Below, piece by piece: positions 559 through 58,987 of a stretch of DNA of 64,000 nt. The position numbers and the translations under genes were made by a program. The stretch covers positions 338 to 64,337 of the forward strand of contig MHGF01000025.1 of NCBI GenBank assembly GCA_001805445.1. The letters run 5' to 3'. The notes beneath the pieces were generated by a model. That model ran no database searches. It was not told the DNA's origin and saw nothing but the letters and a program-made list of their open reading frames with translations. This DNA is from Omnitrophica WOR_2 bacterium GWF2_43_52. Lineage in GTDB: Bacteria; Omnitrophota; Gorgyraeia; Gygaellales; UBA12090. Each line of letters begins with the position of its first letter. Within the stretch, counting starts at the first letter, position 1.

Positions 559-1736
559 ACCTCAGGGATTCTGAAGTAATTGCGGGGCTGCTTTTGGAGG
601 GGGGATTTGGGGTGACGGAAGAAGAGGAAAAGGCTGACGCGGTTTTGTTTGTGACTTGTTCTGTGAGGCAGCATGCTGAGGATAAGGTTTGGTCGGAGAT
701 TGGGCGGTTTTCTAAAATGGTGCCTAAGCCGGTTATCGGGCTGGTTGGTTGTATGGCAGAAAACTATAAAGACAAAGCTTTTAAACGGATGCAGGGGATT
801 GATGTGGTGGTGGGGACGAATAATATCGGGGAAATTCCATATTTATTAAAAGAGGTGTTTGCTCATCAGCTCATTAGCTCATTAGCTCATCAGCCTTTTT
901 TAGCGGTAAGTAAAAAAGAGCGCGATGAGGTTGTGTATGAGTCTATGTTTCGTCAGGAAAAAGACAGTAGCTTTGTGGTGATTTCAGAGGGATGTGATAA
1001 TTTCTGCTCTTACTGTGTAGTGCCGTATGTGCGGGGAAGGCTAAGACATCGGAATTATAAGAATATTATCGCGGAGATAGAGCAAAATATAAAACAGGGA
1101 ATTGAGCGCGTTACTTTGCTTGGCCAGAACGTGAATGCGTATCAGTTCAAATCTGTCAGTCAATATCAGGAAATACGGATATTACCCCCTCCCTTGCCCT
1201 CCCCACATCAGGGGAGGGCATATCGTTCGCGGTCAATAGTTAATTTTATGCAATTATTAAAGCTGGTTAATGATATAGACGGTTTACGAGAATTCAGTTT
1301 TGTTACCTCTCATCCGAAAGACGCCTCAGTTGAGCTTTTTGAGGCTATGGCTAAGTTAGATAAGCTCAAAAAATATTTACACTTGCCATTTCAGTCAGGT
1401 TCGAATAGAATATTAGAGTTGATGAAACGCGGCTATACCAGAGAGCGCTATCTTCAATTAGCAGGAGAATATCGTAAGATAGTGCCCCAAGGTGAGCTTA
1501 CCACAGATATTATCGTGGGTTTTCCGAGCGAGACGGAAGAGGATTTTAAAGAGACCCTTGAACTCGTGCAAAAGGTAAGATTTAACGGCGCCTATATCTT
1601 TAAATACTCGCCCCGCCCGCATGCTAAGGCGGGCGAATTACCTGACGATGTGCCAAAGATAGAGAAAGAACGAAGGCATAGGATTTTATTAGAAACCCAA
1701 AAAAAGATTTCTAAGGAGTTAAAAGCTAAACAGTGA
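486..1736 (+). CDS. miaB: tRNA-i6A37 methylthiotransferase, a radical-SAM enzyme of the MiaB/RimO family
   Basis: An N-terminal MTTase domain with 'FGCQMN' and a radical-SAM 'CDNFCSYCVVP' motif. It sits next to miaA. It contains two in-frame repeat insertions, described in the findings. Confidence 0.8.
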   Translation: MSKESKAYKNLPKKVYIRTFGCQMNLRDSEVIAGLLLEGGFGVTEEEEKADAVLFVTCSVRQHAEDKVWSEIGRFSKMVPKPVIGLVGCMAENYKDKAFKRMQGIDVVVGTNNIGEIPYLLKEVFAHQLISSLAHQPFLAVSKKERDEVVYESMFRQEKDSSFVVISEGCDNFCSYCVVPYVRGRLRHRNYKNIIAEIEQNIKQGIERVTLLGQNVNAYQFKSVSQYQEIRILPPPLPSPHQGRAYRSRSIVNFMQLLKLVNDIDGLREFSFVTSHPKDASVELFEAMAKLDKLKKYLHLPFQSGSNRILELMKRGYTRERYLQLAGEYRKIVPQGELTTDIIVGFPSETEEDFKETLELVQKVRFNGAYIFKYSPRPHAKAGELPDDVPKIEKERRHRILLETQKKISKELKAKQ

Positions 1737-6684: not shown

Positions 6685-9600
6685 ATGAAATCACATTTGC
6701 TGCATAAAACTATTTCCCTATGGGTATCTTTTTGCCTCATTTTTACCCAATTCGCATTTGCCCAAGGGGTAGCCGAACTTAATGTATCAGAGTACTTTAG
6801 GCAAATACATACTAATGTACCTTTTGGTGATAAGCTGAGGCCGCCTCAGCTTAGGTATTTCTCTTATGATACTGTCACAGATGATTATAGGATTATTTTA
6901 GATAAGGGGGCAATAAAAGAGATATCAGAAACCGACGCGGCAGAAAAAGCGAAAACACTTTTAAGTTACTTTCTGATAGGGGTAACCCTCCCCAATGATA
7001 CATTCTGGGTCAACCTGAGGCCCGATGCTCCGGATACTATCATAGACTTTGAATTAGAGAAAACCGATATCGGGAGGATTCTTCTGGAAGCCGACCTGCA
7101 ACTCAAGAAAGATACGGCTCAATGCACCTCACCTCAAACGCCAGATGGTAAGCTCTATTGGGATAAGCTCTATCAGAAGGCAGGTGAGCTCTTTGGCTCT
7201 GAGAATATTACCATTCCTACCTTAACCCGTCCGTGGATAGTACCAGGGGAGATAATCGTAAGAGAAACAGATAATTCCGCCTACATTTACAAGGCAAGCC
7301 TCAAGGTATTGTTAGAAGAAGATTACCTCAAAAGCTCTCAGCTTTCAGCTGTCAGCGTTCAGCAGTATAATTTTAAAGACGAACGGCTAAAAGAGTTGAA
7401 TGAATACTCCACACAGCTTATCAGAGAACTTATTATTCCAAAGCTGACCAGAGAGGTTAATACTTCCCAAAGGTATGCCGCCTTGCGGCAGGTATTCTTT
7501 TCATTAGTGCTTTCTCGATGGTTTAAGGAAAGATTCCGGGGAAAGCAGGGCGCCTATGCGAAGCTAATTGACAGTAAGAATTTAACTAACCTTATTTCGC
7601 AAGAGCAGTGGTCAAAAAATACCTATTTTAATGAATATAAGGAATCATTTCAGCATGGCGAATATAATATAAAGGAAGGTGTAGCCACTCCTTATGGGCA
7701 AACGATACGGAGTTATGTGAGCGGAGGAATTGAATTGACAGGCGCAGCCAGCCCTTTAAATAGTAATAGCTTTAGGGCTGGAGAGGGCCAAAAAATTACT
7801 AACACAATGCTTACTCTGGCAGGAAATGGAAAAAATCCAAGCCTGCAATTTCCTGCGGTCACATCTTCGCCTTTAGGAAAGCCTGAAGAATATAACAATA
7901 AAACAAACAATATAATTAAAGAGATACGTGATGAGGCTTATAAGGTTCACAGTGGCCTCAAAACTATAATAGAAGCATTAAGGCTTAAAATTACTACAGA
8001 GGATAAAGCACATCAAGACATTGAAGCGGCATTGGATAATCTATCAAGTTGGCCGGGTATCTTGCCTGAAAGTACCGATATTAAGGCTATGGCTAAGGAA
8101 ATAGCGAAAGCATTAAGAATATTGAATAAATATTATCTTAGAGATTTAAAAGGGATACTTGAAAAAAGTGGTTTTGAGGAGCAGTTCTCTGCCATGATAC
8201 TGCGTATGGAAAAAATTATTCCCTTAAAAGAGCAGATTCCCGAAGCGCTTGATAACTTTATGGTTAAGTATAAAAGTAGTATTAACCAAGAGCAATTCCA
8301 AAAAGTAGAAGAACTGCGCCTCAAGGAAAGGCAAGAGTTAGAGAATAAGTACGATGATTTTATCCGTTTATGCGCGTATATGGAGGACCTTGTATCGCAG
8401 CTACGAGAACATGCACAGGAACCTGCGAAAGATTCGCTTTATTTTGATTTGGATGAGTGGCTTTCTTTGGAGTTTAGGGCGCAAATAGAAATGATTGAAA
8501 TAGTGGCTGTGGAAGCTGTGAAGGAAATCCATGGTAAGTTTCAGGAAAAAGTAAATGGAATGGAGCGGCAAAGGGAGGAGTTGGAAAATGATATTAAAAA
8601 TATTCACGACAAAATGAGCGCGGGTGTTTTAGAGCTTATTAATAGGTATAACGATTTAGCGCTGCCTTCATTTATGCCAGCGGGTGATGCCGCCGTTGTA
8701 AGCGAAGATGCGTTCAGCCTATTATTTTTAGAAAACAAAGATTTCAACCACTTGACGCAATTTCAATTTCTTTTGCTTTTTGCAAGTTATGCCTTGGGAA
8801 ATTACGAAATTACAAGGGATAAGAATATACAAAAAGCGTTTAAGGAGAAATCTTTTGCTGAAGGGTTAATTACATTATATAAGAGCGTTTATGATCTAGA
8901 TGAAAGGACAAAGAGCTTTGCTAAAGAGCCTTATACTCCAAATTATAATAAAGCTCTTAATCGTATTCTTATTGAAATGCAGAAAAGAAGTGAAAACTTA
9001 GAGAATAAAATCAGCGGTAATTTGGAATATGCCGTTACTAATGATATGCCTTTTGTGAGATTGCCATTTAGCTTAAGACAAGATAAAGATAATGATTTTA
9101 TAAGGAGCAATCTGCCTGAAGCGATAAGCAGGCTTGATAATTATTCCAAAGAGCTTGTAGCAGGATATGGTAAGTCAAGAGATAACAGTATGAGAAATCA
9201 TTTATTTTTATTAAACGTAATAGCTGTCAGCGCGAAGGTTGAGATGGAGTTGTTGATGAGTGAGATTAACGGCAATGCTGAAGCTGCGTCTCCCTTGAGG
9301 CAAGAGAATCAGGAGCAAGATGAGTTAGAAAGGATTAAGAAAGAGTTTCTTCCGCCTCTTGGCGCAGGCAGGCTTACTTTTAAAGATGCAGCAAATAAAA
9401 TTGTTCATGAAATTAGCCAAGTCATAATGGAAAAGATCAATTCTACTGATGAGAACGCAGCATCAAAATTATATAGGGAGAAGCCGTCACCTTACAGTAG
9501 CCTCAAAACGTACCTAGAGGCTTTAGGCTTTACTATTAATGAAAAAGTGGACATGCAGAAGCTGCAAAACGAGATAGAAGCTCTTATCGGGGTAATAAAG

Positions 9601-10407
9601 GATTACGGCTTTGCAGCTAAGCTGGCGGATGAGATTAAAGCTTTGGACACACTTAGTAATAGATTGATTTCACAAGGCGAACAGTTTGCTGAGGAGCTGA
9701 GTCAGTTAAAGGTGACGCCTGCATATTTGGGAAGCCTTATAAAAGAGAGGCCTGTCGCTCTTTATTATCAATTTGCTGAGCTGGTCAAGTTAAATGATCA
9801 AAGCTATCCTGATAATTTTTCTTTGATTCTAGTCCCGTTGCCTCATGACGAGGGTAGTTTTTTAATTCAATTGCAAACACCGCAGCGCAGTATTGTAAAT
9901 ATAAATGTTTATAAAAATGGTGCTATTAAAGTTTCGCGCAATGATATTTTAAACAATTTAGACGTGAGGGTTTTAGCCATGAATATTGCAGAGGCTTTGC
10001 AAAAAGGCGTTGCTTCTTCTGGGATTCAAGGCCAGCCGCAAGGGGATATTGGAGGTATTGACTTTCGTGCGATGAATATATTGACGCAGCCAATGGGAAA
10101 CCTTTCCGGGTTGGATTTTAGTTTACCTGTGTTGAGTAGGGCAACGTTGGAAGACTTTGATATGGAGAAAGAATTAGAGCAGATTAGGAATATGGTAAAA
10201 GGCGGGATAATTCCCTCTGGCCAAAGAGTGAAGGAGTATGTAGCGGCCTGTTTTCAAAAAGGGCAAATGAAGGAAAAGGAGGATGAATTGATGTTTTGTT
10301 TGCTGGAAATCTGCATGTTGCAAGAGGAGCAAGTAGTAGAAAGCTCGGCAGCATTGAGAGAATCAATAGTTATCGTAGATACAGGAAGATACGTTTTAAA
10401 AAAGTAA
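6685..10407 (+). CDS. Large secreted, mostly alpha-helical protein of unknown function (1240 aa)
   Basis: A long ORF with a clear signal peptide and RBS context. No motif I recognise. Confidence 0.6.
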   Translation: MKSHLLHKTISLWVSFCLIFTQFAFAQGVAELNVSEYFRQIHTNVPFGDKLRPPQLRYFSYDTVTDDYRIILDKGAIKEISETDAAEKAKTLLSYFLIGVTLPNDTFWVNLRPDAPDTIIDFELEKTDIGRILLEADLQLKKDTAQCTSPQTPDGKLYWDKLYQKAGELFGSENITIPTLTRPWIVPGEIIVRETDNSAYIYKASLKVLLEEDYLKSSQLSAVSVQQYNFKDERLKELNEYSTQLIRELIIPKLTREVNTSQRYAALRQVFFSLVLSRWFKERFRGKQGAYAKLIDSKNLTNLISQEQWSKNTYFNEYKESFQHGEYNIKEGVATPYGQTIRSYVSGGIELTGAASPLNSNSFRAGEGQKITNTMLTLAGNGKNPSLQFPAVTSSPLGKPEEYNNKTNNIIKEIRDEAYKVHSGLKTIIEALRLKITTEDKAHQDIEAALDNLSSWPGILPESTDIKAMAKEIAKALRILNKYYLRDLKGILEKSGFEEQFSAMILRMEKIIPLKEQIPEALDNFMVKYKSSINQEQFQKVEELRLKERQELENKYDDFIRLCAYMEDLVSQLREHAQEPAKDSLYFDLDEWLSLEFRAQIEMIEIVAVEAVKEIHGKFQEKVNGMERQREELENDIKNIHDKMSAGVLELINRYNDLALPSFMPAGDAAVVSEDAFSLLFLENKDFNHLTQFQFLLLFASYALGNYEITRDKNIQKAFKEKSFAEGLITLYKSVYDLDERTKSFAKEPYTPNYNKALNRILIEMQKRSENLENKISGNLEYAVTNDMPFVRLPFSLRQDKDNDFIRSNLPEAISRLDNYSKELVAGYGKSRDNSMRNHLFLLNVIAVSAKVEMELLMSEINGNAEAASPLRQENQEQDELERIKKEFLPPLGAGRLTFKDAANKIVHEISQVIMEKINSTDENAASKLYREKPSPYSSLKTYLEALGFTINEKVDMQKLQNEIEALIGVIKDYGFAAKLADEIKALDTLSNRLISQGEQFAEELSQLKVTPAYLGSLIKERPVALYYQFAELVKLNDQSYPDNFSLILVPLPHDEGSFLIQLQTPQRSIVNINVYKNGAIKVSRNDILNNLDVRVLAMNIAEALQKGVASSGIQGQPQGDIGGIDFRAMNILTQPMGNLSGLDFSLPVLSRATLEDFDMEKELEQIRNMVKGGIIPSGQRVKEYVAACFQKGQMKEKEDELMFCLLEICMLQEEQVVESSAALRESIVIVDTGRYVLKK

Positions 10408-11433: not shown

Positions 11434-11562
11434 GATTAGAGAAGAATTTTTTACGTTTACCGTTCACCGCTTACCGTGTACCGTTATAATCGTACATACT
11501 CTACGGTAAACGGTTCGCGGTTAACGGTACACGAAACGTGATTCTTCAAGAAGGATAGGTAA

Positions 11563-19562: not shown

Positions 19563-20863
19563 GCGCGTTTTGCGGTTTGCGATATAACCCCACGCTCGTT
19601 AAAAAAATAGAAAAAGTAGTATGCCCGCCCTATGACGTTATTTCCCCGGAGCAGCAGAATAAACTCCATGCATCAAGCCGCGATAATTTTATCCGTCTCA
19701 TTTTAGGTAAGGCAAAGCAAAGTGATACCTCCAGGCATAATAAATATACCCGCGCGGGAGATTTCTTAAAGGAGGCTATCAGAAAAAAAGTATTCGTTTG
19801 CGACAGCCTGCCAGCTATCTATCTCTATGAACAGGAGTACAGGGTAGCCGCTCAGGGCTATAAGCGCCTTGGTTTTATTGCCCTTCTTCGGCTTGAGCCG
19901 ACAGGAAAAGGGGTAGTGTTTCCTCACGAGAAGACTTTTTGTAAGCCCAAACAGGACAGGCTTTCCCTGCTTAAGGCGACGCAGGCAAATCTCTGCCCTA
20001 TCTTTGGGCTCTATGATGCCGATGATGCCGCTGTCGACGCGCGCCTCAGAAAGCATGCCAAGGCAAAACCGCTCTATGATTTTTTCTTTGAGGGAATAAG
20101 AAATAAACTTTGGAAAATAGAAGACCGGGAATTTATCCGCGGGCTTACGCAAGCGATGGCCGATAAACAGATTTTTATCGCTGACGGCCATCATCGCTAT
20201 GAAGTAGCCAGCCTTTATCATAGGCTAGCGCGCAAGCGTACCGTGGCGCGCTCGCGGAGTGATTATGTGATGATGTATTTTTGTAACCTCAGGAACCAAG
20301 GCCTCAGAGTGTTGCCAACGCATAGGGTAGTACGTAATGTCAGCCAGGAAATTATTTCTCAACTACCGGCATTGTTAGAAAACTATTTCAAGCTAAGCCC
20401 TTGCGCGAATTTACCCGAGCTTCTTCTCCAGCTTAAAAAAAGGGCAGGCCGGCGCGCCTTCGGACTTTTTTTAGGAGCAAACCGGTTTTACCTGCTTGAT
20501 GTTAGGGCTACTCCGGCAAAAAAGAAACCCGTGGTTTCCCAAGGAGATTATTGCTATAATAACTTAGATGTTGTTTTGCTGCATAGTTTAGTTTTTAGCA
20601 AACTACTGAAACTAAAAAAGCAGCATCATCACGATGCGGATATTGTGTATGCCCGGGATGAAAAGCAAGCCGTTAGTTTAGTAAAAAGCAAAAAATACCA
20701 GGCAGCATTTTTTATGAATCCGCCAAGCCCTCGGGAAATCAGCTCTATCGCGCGCTGCTTTAAAAAGATGCCGCATAAGTCAACGTATTTTTATCCTAAG
20801 CCGGTTTCAGGGCTGGTGATAAACATGCTCAAGAAAGAGCTGCCAGTAGAGAGTAGAGAGTAG
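19550..20863 (+). CDS. DUF1015-family protein
   Basis: N-terminal 'FCGLRYNP...PPYDVIS' is characteristic of DUF1015. Confidence 0.6.
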   Translation: MAEISAFCGLRYNPTLVKKIEKVVCPPYDVISPEQQNKLHASSRDNFIRLILGKAKQSDTSRHNKYTRAGDFLKEAIRKKVFVCDSLPAIYLYEQEYRVAAQGYKRLGFIALLRLEPTGKGVVFPHEKTFCKPKQDRLSLLKATQANLCPIFGLYDADDAAVDARLRKHAKAKPLYDFFFEGIRNKLWKIEDREFIRGLTQAMADKQIFIADGHHRYEVASLYHRLARKRTVARSRSDYVMMYFCNLRNQGLRVLPTHRVVRNVSQEIISQLPALLENYFKLSPCANLPELLLQLKKRAGRRAFGLFLGANRFYLLDVRATPAKKKPVVSQGDYCYNNLDVVLLHSLVFSKLLKLKKQHHHDADIVYARDEKQAVSLVKSKKYQAAFFMNPPSPREISSIARCFKKMPHKSTYFYPKPVSGLVINMLKKELPVESRE

Positions 20864-47037: not shown

Positions 47038-47637
47038 ATGAGAAAACAAAGAAAAGCAAAAGTTGAGAGAAGAACAACAGAAACCACTATTGGCCTCGCG
47101 ATTAACTTAGATGGCAGGGGGAAATCGAAAATTAAAACGCCGATAGGTTTTTTGAGCCATATGCTTACCCTTTTTGCTAGACACGGATTATTTGACCTTG
47201 AGCTAAAGGCTACTGGGGATACAGAGGTGGATCTTCATCATACGAATGAAGATATTGGGATATGCCTAGGCCAGGCGCTCCAAAAGGCGCTCAAGGATAA
47301 GGCAGGTATCAGAAGGTTTGGTTTTGCCTCGGTGCCTATGGATGAGGCGCTTGTAGAACTAAGCCTGGATATCAGCGGAAGGCCTTATTTAGCGTTTATC
47401 GTTAACCGTTTACCGTTTACCGCTACTGGGAAAGAATACAGTATGAATTATTTAAAGCAGTTCCTGCAGGCACTGGTGAATACCTCGGGGATAACCATGC
47501 ATGTGGAAATCCTCTATGGGGAAGATTTGCATCACTGTATTGAAGCGGTGTTTAAGGCTTTAGGAAGAGCTTTACGGGAGGCGGTAAGTATCGATAGCCG
47601 TATTCAAGGAATTTTATCTACAAAAGGAAGATTGTAG
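47038..47637 (+). CDS. hisB: Imidazoleglycerol-phosphate dehydratase
   Basis: IGPD motifs ('HHTNED'). Confidence 0.85.
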   Translation: MRKQRKAKVERRTTETTIGLAINLDGRGKSKIKTPIGFLSHMLTLFARHGLFDLELKATGDTEVDLHHTNEDIGICLGQALQKALKDKAGIRRFGFASVPMDEALVELSLDISGRPYLAFIVNRLPFTATGKEYSMNYLKQFLQALVNTSGITMHVEILYGEDLHHCIEAVFKALGRALREAVSIDSRIQGILSTKGRL

Positions 47638-47659: not shown

Positions 47660-47815
47660 CAAAATAACCAAACACCAATTTCCAATAACCAAATAATAAC
47701 CAATGTGCCAATGACCAAACTATTTGTTTATTGGGTATTGTCACGCAAAGCTGGTTTCTTGTCTCTATGAGATAATGGGCAGGTGAGTTTATTTGGTTAT
47801 TGGTGATTTATGCTC
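47660..47815. repeat. MITE-like long imperfect hairpin repeat (copy 1 of the 'AACCAAACACCAATTTCCAATAACCAAA' family)
   Basis: A 35-bp block nearly identical to 52822-52860. The arms CCAATAACCAAATAA and TTATTTGGTTATTGG pair. Confidence 0.6.
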
Positions 47816-47885: not shown

Positions 47886-48560
47886 ATGATTTCAGTTATC
47901 GACTATGGTATGGGAAATTTGCGCAGTGTGGCAAAGGCGTTAGAAGCCGCGGGTGCGGGGGATGTTTTGGTGACTTCAGATATCAAGACAATTGACAAAG
48001 CAGATAAGATCGTCCTCCCCGGTGTTGGCGCGATGCAGGATGCCATGAAAGAGCTTAAGCGGTTGGATTTAATAAAGGTGATTAAAGAAAGTATTCTGAA
48101 AAAACCGTTTCTAGGTATTTGCCTCGGGCTGCAGTTACTTTTTACCGAAAGTGAAGAGGGGCACAAGACGCGAGGGTTGGGGGTATTTAAAGGAAAGGTT
48201 AAACGCTTTAGTTCTGACATGAAAGCCCCGCATATGGGGTGGAATCAAATTGTACGAAGGACGAAGGACGTCCCTTCGACTTGGTTCGACTACGCTCACC
48301 ACAAGTCGCTCAGGGCAGGGGGACGAGAGACGAAAAAAAACATAAATCTGTTAAAAAATATCCCTGATGCTGCGTATTTTTATTTCTGTCATTCATACTA
48401 TGTTGTTCCGGATGATAAAGGCCTGATTGCGACAACTACCGAGTATGGCATTGACTTTGTATCTTCAATTTGTAAGGGTAATCTTTTTGCCTGTCAGTTT
48501 CATCCTGAGAAAAGCCAAAGTGTGGGTTTAAAGCTTTTAGAAAATTTTGTAAGGCTATAG
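47886..48560 (+). CDS. hisH: Imidazole glycerol phosphate synthase glutaminase subunit
   Basis: 'VLPGVGA' and a catalytic Cys 'GICLGLQ'. It contains an in-frame insert of about 30 aa. Confidence 0.85.
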   Translation: MISVIDYGMGNLRSVAKALEAAGAGDVLVTSDIKTIDKADKIVLPGVGAMQDAMKELKRLDLIKVIKESILKKPFLGICLGLQLLFTESEEGHKTRGLGVFKGKVKRFSSDMKAPHMGWNQIVRRTKDVPSTWFDYAHHKSLRAGGRETKKNINLLKNIPDAAYFYFCHSYYVVPDDKGLIATTTEYGIDFVSSICKGNLFACQFHPEKSQSVGLKLLENFVRL

Positions 48561-49374: not shown

Positions 49375-49818
49375 ATGAGAGGGAAAATTTTCATTATAGC
49401 GGGGATGTTAGGATTGGCAGGATGCGCGACTGCCCATAAAAATAGTGATATGGAAATGCAGAGCCTACGTACGCATGTTAGTGAGTTAGAATCACAGCTT
49501 CAGCAAAAGGATAATCAGGTTATTGCCCTCCAGGAAGCCTTGGATACCGAATCTAAGGAAAGGACAAGCCTTGCAACCCAGCTCTCAACCTTAACTGAGA
49601 AGTATAAGTCGGTTTCCCATACAGGTTCAGTGAAGCAAATTCAAATTGCTCTCCAGAACGCGGGTTATGATATGGGCAAGATTGATGGGGTAATGGGTGG
49701 TAAAACCCGTAGCGCGGTGAGAGATTTTCAAAAGGCCAATAGTTTGAAGGTTACCGGGAAGGTGGACAAAGAGACTTGGCTTTTGCTGCGGCAATATCTG
49801 CATAAAAAGGTAAAATAA
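49375..49818 (+). CDS. Lipoprotein with a coiled-coil and a PG_binding_1 (peptidoglycan-binding) domain
   Basis: 'LAGC' lipobox and a C-terminal 'GKIDGVMGGKTRSAVRDFQ' peptidoglycan-binding motif. Confidence 0.6.
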   Translation: MRGKIFIIAGMLGLAGCATAHKNSDMEMQSLRTHVSELESQLQQKDNQVIALQEALDTESKERTSLATQLSTLTEKYKSVSHTGSVKQIQIALQNAGYDMGKIDGVMGGKTRSAVRDFQKANSLKVTGKVDKETWLLLRQYLHKKVK

Positions 49819-50023
49819 CTATTCGTTAAGAATACGGAAATCTAGTGCGCTGTTACAAAAGTTATCAAACAGCGCACTAGGGGGTGTGGGGGAGATTGTC
49901 CACCACGCTTGGGGGGTGCTCAGCGATCCGCCGTAGGCGGAGAGCGCCGAAGCCCGCCGTAGGCGGGCTAGCGGAAGTGCGAAATCAATATTAAGAATTA
50001 ATTTGACAGAGCACTAGGCAACG

Positions 50024-50845
50024 ATGTTAACCAAAAGGATTATACCCTGCCTTGACGTTAAAGACGGAAGGGTGGTAAAAGGAGTCAAGTTTTTAAATTT
50101 AAAAGACGCGGGTGACCCGGTTATCATTGCCAAACGCTATGAAGAAGAGCAGGCCGATGAACTTGTATTCCTGGATATTACCGCAAGCGCGGAAAACAGA
50201 AATATTATTCTCGATGTGGTCCGGCGCACCGCGGAAAATGTCTTTATGCCGCTTACTGTCGGAGGAGGGATACGCGCTATAGCTGACATCCGCGCGTTGC
50301 TGAATGCCGGCGCGGACAAGGTTTCTATCAATACGGCGGCAGTAAAGAGGCCGGCGCTCATCAAAGAGGCAGCGGATAAATTCGGCAGTCAGTGTATTGT
50401 GGTGGCGATTGACGCTAAAAGGGTCAATAGTCAATGGCCTATGGCCAATGGTCAAACGAAGAAGCTATCGACTATCGACTATCGATTATCGACTAAGAAG
50501 TGGGAAGTGTATATTAACGGAGGCAGAACGCCCACAGGGTTAGATGCTGTAAAATGGGCGAAGAAGGCTGAAGCCTCAGGAGCGGGTGAAATACTTTTGA
50601 CCAGCATGGATGCTGATGGGACAAAAAACGGTTATGACCTTGAGCTGACGAACGCTATAACAACTGCAGTGAATATTCCACTCATCGCATCGGGAGGCGC
50701 GGGGAAAAAAGAGGATTTTTATACTGTATTGACTGAAGCAGGCGCGGATGCCGCGTTAGCCGCATCGCTTTTTCACTATCAGGAGTTACGCATTAAAGAG
50801 GTTAAGAGCTATTTACAGAAAAAAGGAGTATTGGTGCGATGGTAA
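50024..50845 (+). CDS. hisF: Imidazole glycerol phosphate synthase cyclase subunit
   Basis: HisF motifs. It contains an in-frame insert of about 21 aa. Confidence 0.85.
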
Positions 50846-52821: not shown

Positions 52822-52965
52822 GAAAATAACCAAACACCAATTTCCAATAACCAAACAATACCCAATCACCAATAGCCAAATTTCACGCATGCTGTTTGGT
52901 TATTGATAATAGGGTATTGGGGTTTGTTTGATTATTGTATCTTGATAATTGGTTATTTCGGGCTC
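52822..52965. repeat. MITE-like hairpin repeat (copy 2 of the 'CCAATAACCAAA' family)
   Basis: Shares a 35-bp block with 47662-47697 and has a complementary TGTTTGGTTATTG arm. Confidence 0.6.
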
Positions 52966-58870: not shown

Positions 58871-58987
58871 CCCCACCTACCAATTCAACCTCGTAGGTTG
58901 TAGGAAAACGTCGACGGGTAATTCTGACAACCTACGAGGTTGAATTGGTTGACAACCTACGAGGTTGAATTGGTTTTGGAAGATGAG

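Follow-up and report, generated by a model that had tools for sequence, protein, structure and literature searches.

A heptamer-repeat insert in HisF of an Omnitrophota bacterium, probably a passenger repeat cassette in a permissive loop

The hisF gene of Omnitrophica WOR_2 bacterium GWF2_43_52 (contig MHGF01000025.1) encodes the cyclase subunit of imidazole glycerol phosphate synthase and carries, inside its coding sequence, an insert that contains tandem CTATCGA heptamers. The question this locus raises is what a repeat unit that is not a multiple of three is doing in the interior of an essential enzyme, whether as a switch, an adapted protein loop, a nucleic-acid signal or a passenger. We examined the insert within the window, that is, the whole stretch of 64,000 nt (64 kb; positions 338 to 64,337 of the contig) that was analysed, and all coordinates below are those of the window. 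We consider the insert to be probably a short passenger repeat cassette (of the short tandemly repeated repetitive sequence, STRR, or palindromic-element type) that occupies a permissive loop in a functional enzyme; we saw no indication of a role in regulating or switching hisF. Period-7 arrays and heptamer-armed hairpins form a lineage-wide class, which lies mostly between genes in this Omnitrophota genome.

The insert and the enzyme that carries it

The DNA at 50424-50498, which an earlier note made from the sequence alone had quoted, was confirmed by reading the sequence: tcaatagtcaatggcctatggccaatggtcaaacgaagaag, then ctatcga three times, ttatcga and cta. The hisF product matched TIGR00735 with 387.7 bits (cutoff 294.55; protein 1-272, profile 1-254/254), and HisF chains in PDB matched it with a best E of 6e-103 and aligned in two blocks, query 1-138 and ~160-272 (HMMER), leaving ~22 residues without counterpart where the earlier note had counted ~21. 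The protein is 100% identical to the HisF recorded for this WOR_2 bacterium. The length difference was also found against Thermotoga HisF, LUCA-HisF and some close homologues, such as protein P0044 and the relative's locus L211, which read 'VNSQWEVYIN' and have no insert. Alignment with the DNA of the insert-free L211 left a 66-nt gap at the insertion; with a TGG codon at either end, a placement at 50435-50500 (W138-K159) is just as valid as the one in Table 1.

When characterizing the repeat, we observed that 50423-50499 consists of 11 heptads in one register, from GTCAATA to CTAAGAA (arm 1, spacer and arm 2 in Table 1), with a lag-7 identity of 48/70. None of 100,000 shuffles reached this value (shuffle maximum 35), and the window has a single further site with a score as high, at ~20834-20849. 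Tandem Repeats Finder (TRF) reported two period-7 arrays in hisF, at 50432-50455 (CAATGGC, 3.4 copies) and 50465-50495 (CTATCGA, 4.4 copies, 91% matches), and only three CTATCGA units of the tract are perfect. The CAATGG direct repeat described earlier is present, but it belongs to the first, degenerate heptamer array. Arms 1 and 2 are inverted complements of each other, though imperfect ones that match at 6/7 positions per heptad at best. AAGAAG lies on either side of arm 2 and TGG at both ends of the insert, neither of which is convincing as a target-site duplication. Moreover, a perfect arm 1 of at least three units must carry an in-frame stop, because the reverse complement of CTATCGA contains TAG; the unit in which TAG would be in frame has TGG (W138) in the window and CAG (Gln) in relatives L215 and L216, and out-of-frame TAGs are retained, as read directly from the sequences. 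The stop-avoiding unit fits a DNA-repeat origin of the insert. A programmed -1 frameshift site was considered and rejected, since CTATCGA is not a slippery heptamer of the form X XXY YYZ and the zero frame is intact.

The AlphaFold2 model of HisF, built from a 52-sequence alignment, has a confident barrel (predicted local distance difference test, pLDDT, >90; mean pLDDT 84.7, 170 residues at >=90) and superposed on 4evz, 1gpw and 6rtz with target-normalised template modelling (TM) scores of 0.92-0.95 and root-mean-square deviations of 1.6-1.9 Å. R5, D11, E46, K99, D130 and E189 are invariant in that alignment; we take D11 and D130 to be catalytic and R5, E46, K99 and E167 (T. maritima HisF numbering) to be ammonia-gate residues. 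Residues 137-156, between strands 125-135 and 158-164, have pLDDT <50 and no secondary structure in this otherwise confident barrel, which confirms the surface loop predicted in the earlier note. In the model, the insert loops out, unstructured, from the tip of the beta-5/beta-5' hairpin on the barrel's catalytic face, and the enzyme that carries it looks functional.

Alleles of the loop in populations and relatives

The exact 273-aa HisF occurred in 37 blocks of the assembly collection, of which 24 contigs were read, so at least 24 carry it, and seven hisF places from different samples and pipelines showed 0 differences over 822 nt. Apart from this protein, the 90%-identity HisF cluster held two sequences, one of 273 aa that shares the insert and a 112-aa fragment (P0121), which starts just after the repeat and is probably a contig break; there was no ±7-residue variant in this cluster. 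Repeat-number variants were sought in population data, as the earlier note had proposed, and none of ±7 nt or ±21 nt was present among the assemblies examined. In a metagenome-assembled genome (MAG), an artefact of assembly or sequencing could be suspected, since repeats are classic misassembly sites and the start of P0121 just past the repeat suggests a contig break, but seven assemblies from different pipelines and samples have identical DNA, many related genomes have homologous inserts and the reading frame is intact, which makes an artefact extremely unlikely.

These data also bear on the implication that hisF is frameshift-prone or switchable. A contingency locus would switch hisF by frameshift through slippage of CTATCGA and make histidine prototrophy phase-variable. 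The arithmetic of the earlier note holds for such a locus: the unit is not a multiple of three and lies inside an open reading frame (ORF), a simulated gain or loss of one unit cuts the protein short at 170 or 159 aa (a simulated change of ±3 units keeps the frame), and heptamer repeats are tied to slippage in the literature (PMC4692102). However, we found no sign of it in nature. The tract has three perfect units where a long uninterrupted tract would be expected, the contigs and the 90% cluster described above are uniform in length, and hisF is a housekeeping gene in an intact his cluster (hisB, hisH, hisA, a small peptidoglycan-binding lipoprotein gene, hisF, hisI, then trpE), not a surface or restriction-modification gene. 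In addition, the frame is kept in all relatives despite their differing cassettes, and the sole polymorphism found is a discrete in-frame allele replacement. We therefore regard a switchable hisF as very unlikely and the implied switching as unsupported.

The second allele was found on two independent contigs, L088 and L219, whose hisF flanks are 98.7% and 100% identical to the window and whose loop is different: an octamer array, GCTCATTA GCTCATTA GTTCATCA GCCCATGA, which encodes KKLISSLVHQPMS. The octamer allele has seven upstream single-nucleotide polymorphisms, five of them within 15 nt beside the loop (50409-50420) and the others at 50221 and 50388, and its cassette is identical to the octamer array inside miaB (Table 1) at 25/26 positions. 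The accession numbers suggest that the heptamer and octamer alleles share one sample series. Whole-cassette replacement between near-identical strains is thus shown.

Among the 120 best homologues (66-91% identical overall, mostly Omnitrophota where named), the loop, measured between 'AIDAK' and 'WEVYINGGR', ranged from 11 to 49 residues and was very diverse in sequence, while the rest of the protein was highly conserved. The baseline is 11 residues in P0044 ('MVNSQWEVYIN'), and the window hisF has 33 on the same count. Loop lengths peaked at 11, 17-18, 23-25, 30-34 and 39, and these 7-residue steps are suggestive only, because the sequences are phylogenetically non-independent. A scan of genome contigs gave mostly distant HisF (<=74% identity). 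Loop DNA was read for ten relatives (L088, L089, L211-L218), of which seven had period-7 DNA (lag-7 identity 0.56-0.60) with differing units. In L089, L213, L215 and L216, (GTCNAYA)4 is followed by an A-rich Lys-coding spacer and (CTATCGA-like)4; arm-1 homologues (GTCTATA/GTCAATG, GTCCACA/GTCCATA) are present in L089, L213, L214, L215 and L216; the arms are of GTCCACA and CCATCGG in L214 and of TGGCATA and CCATAAG in L217, and L218 has a single CGAACCA x4 array, which encodes 'RTTNHEPRTTR'. L212 is reduced (~2 + 1 units, lag-7 0.42), L211 has GTCAATAGTCAG only and no insert (lag-7 0.38), and L088 is period-8. All relatives stay in frame despite these very different cassettes. The earlier note had missed these other cassettes, as well as the inverted-complement arms and the genome-wide heptamer context described below; what it recorded of the repeat itself stands as given above.

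Two further observations concern these relatives. Another Omnitrophota genome (L013, 8883-8975) has, in its HisF loop, a perfect 30-bp palindrome, GTTAGCTGGTGAGCC followed by its partner GGCTCACCAGCTAAC, which is period-8 and in frame. In L218 (ENA contig_4746), recA, hisA, trpE, secDF, mfd and pdxA are each called as two or three fragments, which suggests frameshift errors of a long-read-style assembly rather than biology.

The diversity of the loop also bears on an adaptive explanation, in which the peptide was recruited to extend the beta-5/beta-5' hairpin, as a lid near the site of N'-[(5'-phosphoribulosyl)formimino]-5-aminoimidazole-4-carboxamide ribonucleotide (PRFAR) or as a partner contact. 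The insert lies 3-8 residues past catalytic D130 on the catalytic face, many homologues of 66-86% overall identity also have the 12-residue arm-2 peptide, and arm 2 is strongly conserved. Set against this, AlphaFold gives the insert no structure (pLDDT <50), close relatives have unrelated cassettes or none (none in P0044, the octamer-encoded peptide in L088, the CGAACCA-encoded one in L218), and an array for the same peptide is present in unrelated proteins. Synonymous positions are also conserved, with the whole heptamer unit preserved, and this conservation indicates DNA-level processes. An adaptive loop is accordingly improbable in our judgement.

Period-7 arrays in the window and beyond

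In the 64-kb window, TRF found 17 period-7 arrays against ~1.5 expected from Markov-1 simulations, with other periods near expectation. Eight of these arrays are fully intergenic, two straddle gene ends and seven lie in ORFs, including hisB, hisH, hisF and trpE. Intergenic DNA makes up 9% of the window, yet most period-7 arrays are intergenic, and the hisF array, being intragenic, is therefore an atypical member of the class. Several intergenic arrays stand in inverted pairs and form long hairpins with one mismatch per heptad (z -3.5 to -5.7). TTTACCG-type arrays occur at four loci, one of them in frame in hisB; the hisB array has ~80% similarity to its intergenic counterparts at 11446 and 51245 (reverse complement). 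The identical 33-nt imperfect array in two spacers indicates copying between loci rather than independent slippage, and unit families recur at different loci; therefore, repeats are copied between loci in addition to being generated locally, and copying of other array families within the window is shown. Among relatives, each ~20 kb of L089, L215, L218 and L002 holds 5-6 period-7 arrays where 0.2-0.9 would be expected, and the Omnitrophota loci L029 and L069 have none.

Table 1. Coordinates of the hisF insert and of other repeat features in the window
Feature	Position	Strand	Evidence or remark
Octamer array GCTCATCA x4.2, in frame inside miaB (486-1736)	861-894	+	TRF
Intergenic hairpin, arms (TTTACCG)n and (ACGGTAA)n	11446-11528		TRF; RNA fold -37.7 kcal/mol, z -4.98
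Intergenic long hairpin, heptamer-periodic arms (AGAACAG, CTGTTCT types)	18736-18890		fold z -5.66
(AGTAGAR)n array and inverted partner, across stop codon	20845-20920		fold z -4.90
In-frame TTTACCG-type array in hisB, loop hypervariable among relatives but of similar length	47388-47422	+	
33-nt imperfect heptamer array AAAATAACCAAACACCAATTTCCAATAACCAAA, hisB-hisH spacer	47660-47692	+	identical to 52822-52854
hisF coding sequence, imidazole glycerol phosphate synthase cyclase subunit, 273 aa/codons	50024-50845	+	ORF list, TIGR00735, PDB matches, AlphaFold
GAC codon of catalytic Asp130, end of strand beta-5, 3 codons upstream of the repeat tract	50411-50413	+	invariant D130
Arm 1, five degenerate heptads GTCAATA GTCAATG GCCTATG GCCAATG GTCAAAC	50423-50457	+	TRF and heptad register
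Insertion proper, 66 nt/22 codons, P139-W160	50438-50503	+	HMMER break at 138/160 vs HisF-LUCA 4evz
Spacer heptad GAAGAAG	50458-50464	+	relatives: A-rich, Lys-coding loop, e.g. AAAAAAGAAAAAA
Arm 2, CTATCGA x3, TTATCGA, CTAAGAA; codes for 12-residue peptide	50465-50499	+	TRF
Second copy of the 33-nt array, trpE-rpsP spacer, with inverted partner forming a hairpin	52822-52930	+	fold z -3.54

Beyond hisF, a metagenome scan for (CTATCGA)2.7 matched at least 120 stretches, of which 80 loci were kept. Their GC content was 30-70%, and many had arrays built of other heptamers nearby, together with an inverted partner arm; ranking them by period-7 density was noisy in low-GC and high-GC genomes, and hisF was not among the 80 loci. 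One of the loci, L158, from another organism, has the same kind of composite as hisF, (GTCNATA)4 / A-rich / (CTATCGA)4, in frame in a PheT linker, which adds ~15 residues compared with solved PheT and folds with z -6.2. In-frame (CTATCGA)n was also present in moderate-GC contigs in IspG (L121), a PyrK-like protein (L159), CysN (L132) and FtsK (L130).

We propose that such arrays would arise and alter their length through replication slippage; some are copied from locus to locus, and cassettes are swapped whole between near-identical strains. Selection on hisF may then act as a filter only, under which stop-free lengths divisible by 3 persist, and the insert would be neutral for the enzyme. Such a filter on frame and stops explains the TGG (W138) or CAG where the TAG of arm 1 would be in frame.

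Several findings weigh against the passenger-cassette reading. Slippage was not observed, as no copy-number variants were present among the assemblies examined, and no second CTATCGA array was found in the 64-kb window, so dispersal of the CTATCGA family here is not shown (single CTATCGA units number 6, against 6.1 expected by chance). Arm 2 (35 nt) is 94-97% identical to L089, L215 and L216, whose hisF flanks are 63-75% identical; such conservation is not what a purely neutral passenger predicts, and calls for concerted evolution, lateral exchange of cassettes, or selection acting on either the DNA or the peptide. The RNA fold of the window insert is a weak hairpin (z -1.5 to -1.6), and 13/200 shuffles fold as well. 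Finally, in IMG/VR the CTATCGA array occurred in 26 contigs against 5, 8 and 12 for three control heptamers of the same composition (a 2-5x excess), and all four counts exceed the chance expectation of <1 contig, a rough estimate. So modest an excess over controls in IMG/VR makes no argument for CTATCGA as a sequence-specific (mobile) element.

The conservation of arm 2 as DNA could also point to a functional nucleic-acid hairpin in the his operon, with a role in processing, pausing, attenuation or recombination and with coding being secondary. The relatives' hisF inserts do fold as hairpins, significantly so (z -2.4 to -5.0; L089 -4.4, L215 -4.6, L217 -5.0), intergenic members fold strongly, and the cassette is a site of allele exchange. 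However, the window copy does no better than shuffles (z -1.5, 13/200), some lineages have a single arm (L218) or no insert (L211), and no Rfam family matched in the region. We hold such a function to be unlikely. A strong mRNA hairpin in the window copy was likewise rejected on its z of -1.5, while the copies in relatives do fold. The Rfam gathering scan of the whole window found no RNA family near hisF and only a c-di-GMP-I (cyclic di-GMP) riboswitch aptamer elsewhere (RF01051, 60850-60927 (+), 55.3 bits against a gathering score of 35).

A further possibility is that heptamer-armed hairpin cassettes make up their own class of tiny elements, present in Omnitrophota and in other uncultured phyla. 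A dedicated mechanism, or template switching, would actively copy them or exchange them among loci and among strains, and they would prefer surface loops of core enzymes (HisF, HisB, HisH, PheT, IspG). If so, the resulting loops would be repeat-encoded and hypervariable, with DNA that is conserved better than the gene around it. This idea rests on few cases, and we put it forward as a tentative one that is rather unlikely to be right.

The locus shows that an essential (beta/alpha)8 enzyme can accommodate 22 repeat-encoded residues within a few positions of its catalytic Asp. In this Omnitrophota lineage the HisF loop serves as a landing pad, and what it contains changes faster than the remainder of the gene. 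For annotation, this accounts for the odd 'LSTIDYR'-type peptides and for housekeeping proteins of heterogeneous length in Omnitrophota MAGs. The two alleles in one population and the graded copies of 0-5 units offer natural material for studying the origin of arrays and the conservation of arm 2. The hisF insert does not reveal a new regulatory mechanism.

Other repeats were noted in the window. HisH has an 18-residue in-frame insert, DVPSTWFDYAHHKSLRAG, at D128-G145 (48267-48320), preceded by ACGAAGG x2.4; the insert is absent from L089 and L218, L215 has a different one (…LRLRSG…) at the same site, and it looks like another repeat-derived cassette. An ORF at 6685-10407 (1240 aa, no NCBIfam match) contains an AGCTYTC x4.4 heptamer array (7333-7363) and a 27-nt period repeat (7403-7472), and a perfect 25-nt tandem duplication, TGACAACCTACGAGGTTGAATTGGT x2, lies at 58925-58975 at the junction between two genes. 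Upstream of hisF, 49842-50018 consists of a perfect 13-bp hairpin (49842-49880) and then a ~137-nt GC-rich element, which has CCGCCGTAGGCGG twice and is bounded by a 13-nt direct repeat, ACAG[C/A]GCACTAGG (49869, 50006). The palindrome CCGCCGTAGGCGG occurs six times in the window against 0.04 expected (25392, 28840, 34773, 43822, 49928, 49954). In L082 and L083, whose hisF DNA is 100% identical, a MazE/PIN toxin-antitoxin pair and an S8 peptidase lie upstream in place of hisA and the lipoprotein gene, and synteny breaks within the GC-rich element (~49945-49953). The lipoprotein gene itself (49375-49818, PF01471 peptidoglycan-binding domain) lies between hisA and hisF at the same position in L089 and L218.

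Comparison with known repeat systems

Previous studies found an excess of heptameric simple sequence repeats (SSRs) in many bacteria, in some cases arranged as inverted pairs, and attributed them to polymerase slippage (PMC4692102, which refers to Mrázek 2007 and the Calothrix STRRs for this origin). Examples are the STRR heptamers of Calothrix and Nostoc and the GGGAATC repeats of Xanthomonas (PMC4692102, PMC4679880), and TAACTGA heptamers, including copies within ORFs, are described from Beggiatoaceae, Cyanobacteria and Bacteroidetes (PMC4679880). The arrays studied here resemble these SSRs in having a unit of 7 in 2-10 tandem copies, period 7 over-represented genome-wide (judged here from 64 kb), a mostly intergenic location with occasional convergent inverted pairs able to form stem-loops, length and sequence that vary widely between close relatives, and occasional copies inside ORFs. 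The hisF pair differs in lying in the interior of an essential enzyme near the catalytic Asp, not at a protein terminus or in a spacer, and its units are not G-rich, so no G-quadruplex would form. We found no description of heptameric repeats of this kind in Omnitrophota in the literature searched.

In Haemophilus, phase-variable genes have tetranucleotide or heptanucleotide tracts (PMC2651432). The hisF tract shares with these contingency genes a non-triplet repeat unit in a coding sequence, where slippage by a single unit would cause a frameshift, but it is short (three perfect units), shows no length polymorphism across the many samples compared and lies in a housekeeping gene, and relatives always keep the frame.

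Rickettsia palindromic elements (RPEs) are in-frame palindromic inserts (PMC10969869). Like the hisF cassette, whose hairpin is weak in the window copy, they are repeat-derived DNA of a palindromic build that lies in frame in unrelated housekeeping genes, at places compatible with the fold, and adds a peptide segment while leaving function intact. RPEs, however, are ~100-150 bp dispersed copies of defined families with a conserved peptide, whereas the hisF cassette is 66 nt of tandem heptamers, has no clear terminal inverted repeats or target-site duplication, and has a unit that is single-locus in 64 kb. The small dispersed repeats (SDRs) of Nostoc (Elhai et al. 2008, a study cited in PMC3116915) are said to be tiny hairpin-forming mobile repeats near tandem heptamers, occasionally in conserved genes; they reportedly form defined families of 21-27 nt, whereas the arrays in the window vary in unit and length. 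The class of heptameric repeats and in-frame palindromic inserts is therefore already known, and what is new is the phylum and the unusual intragenic position, by which a long-noted and unexplained excess of heptameric repeats is extended to a new phylum and into coding sequence.

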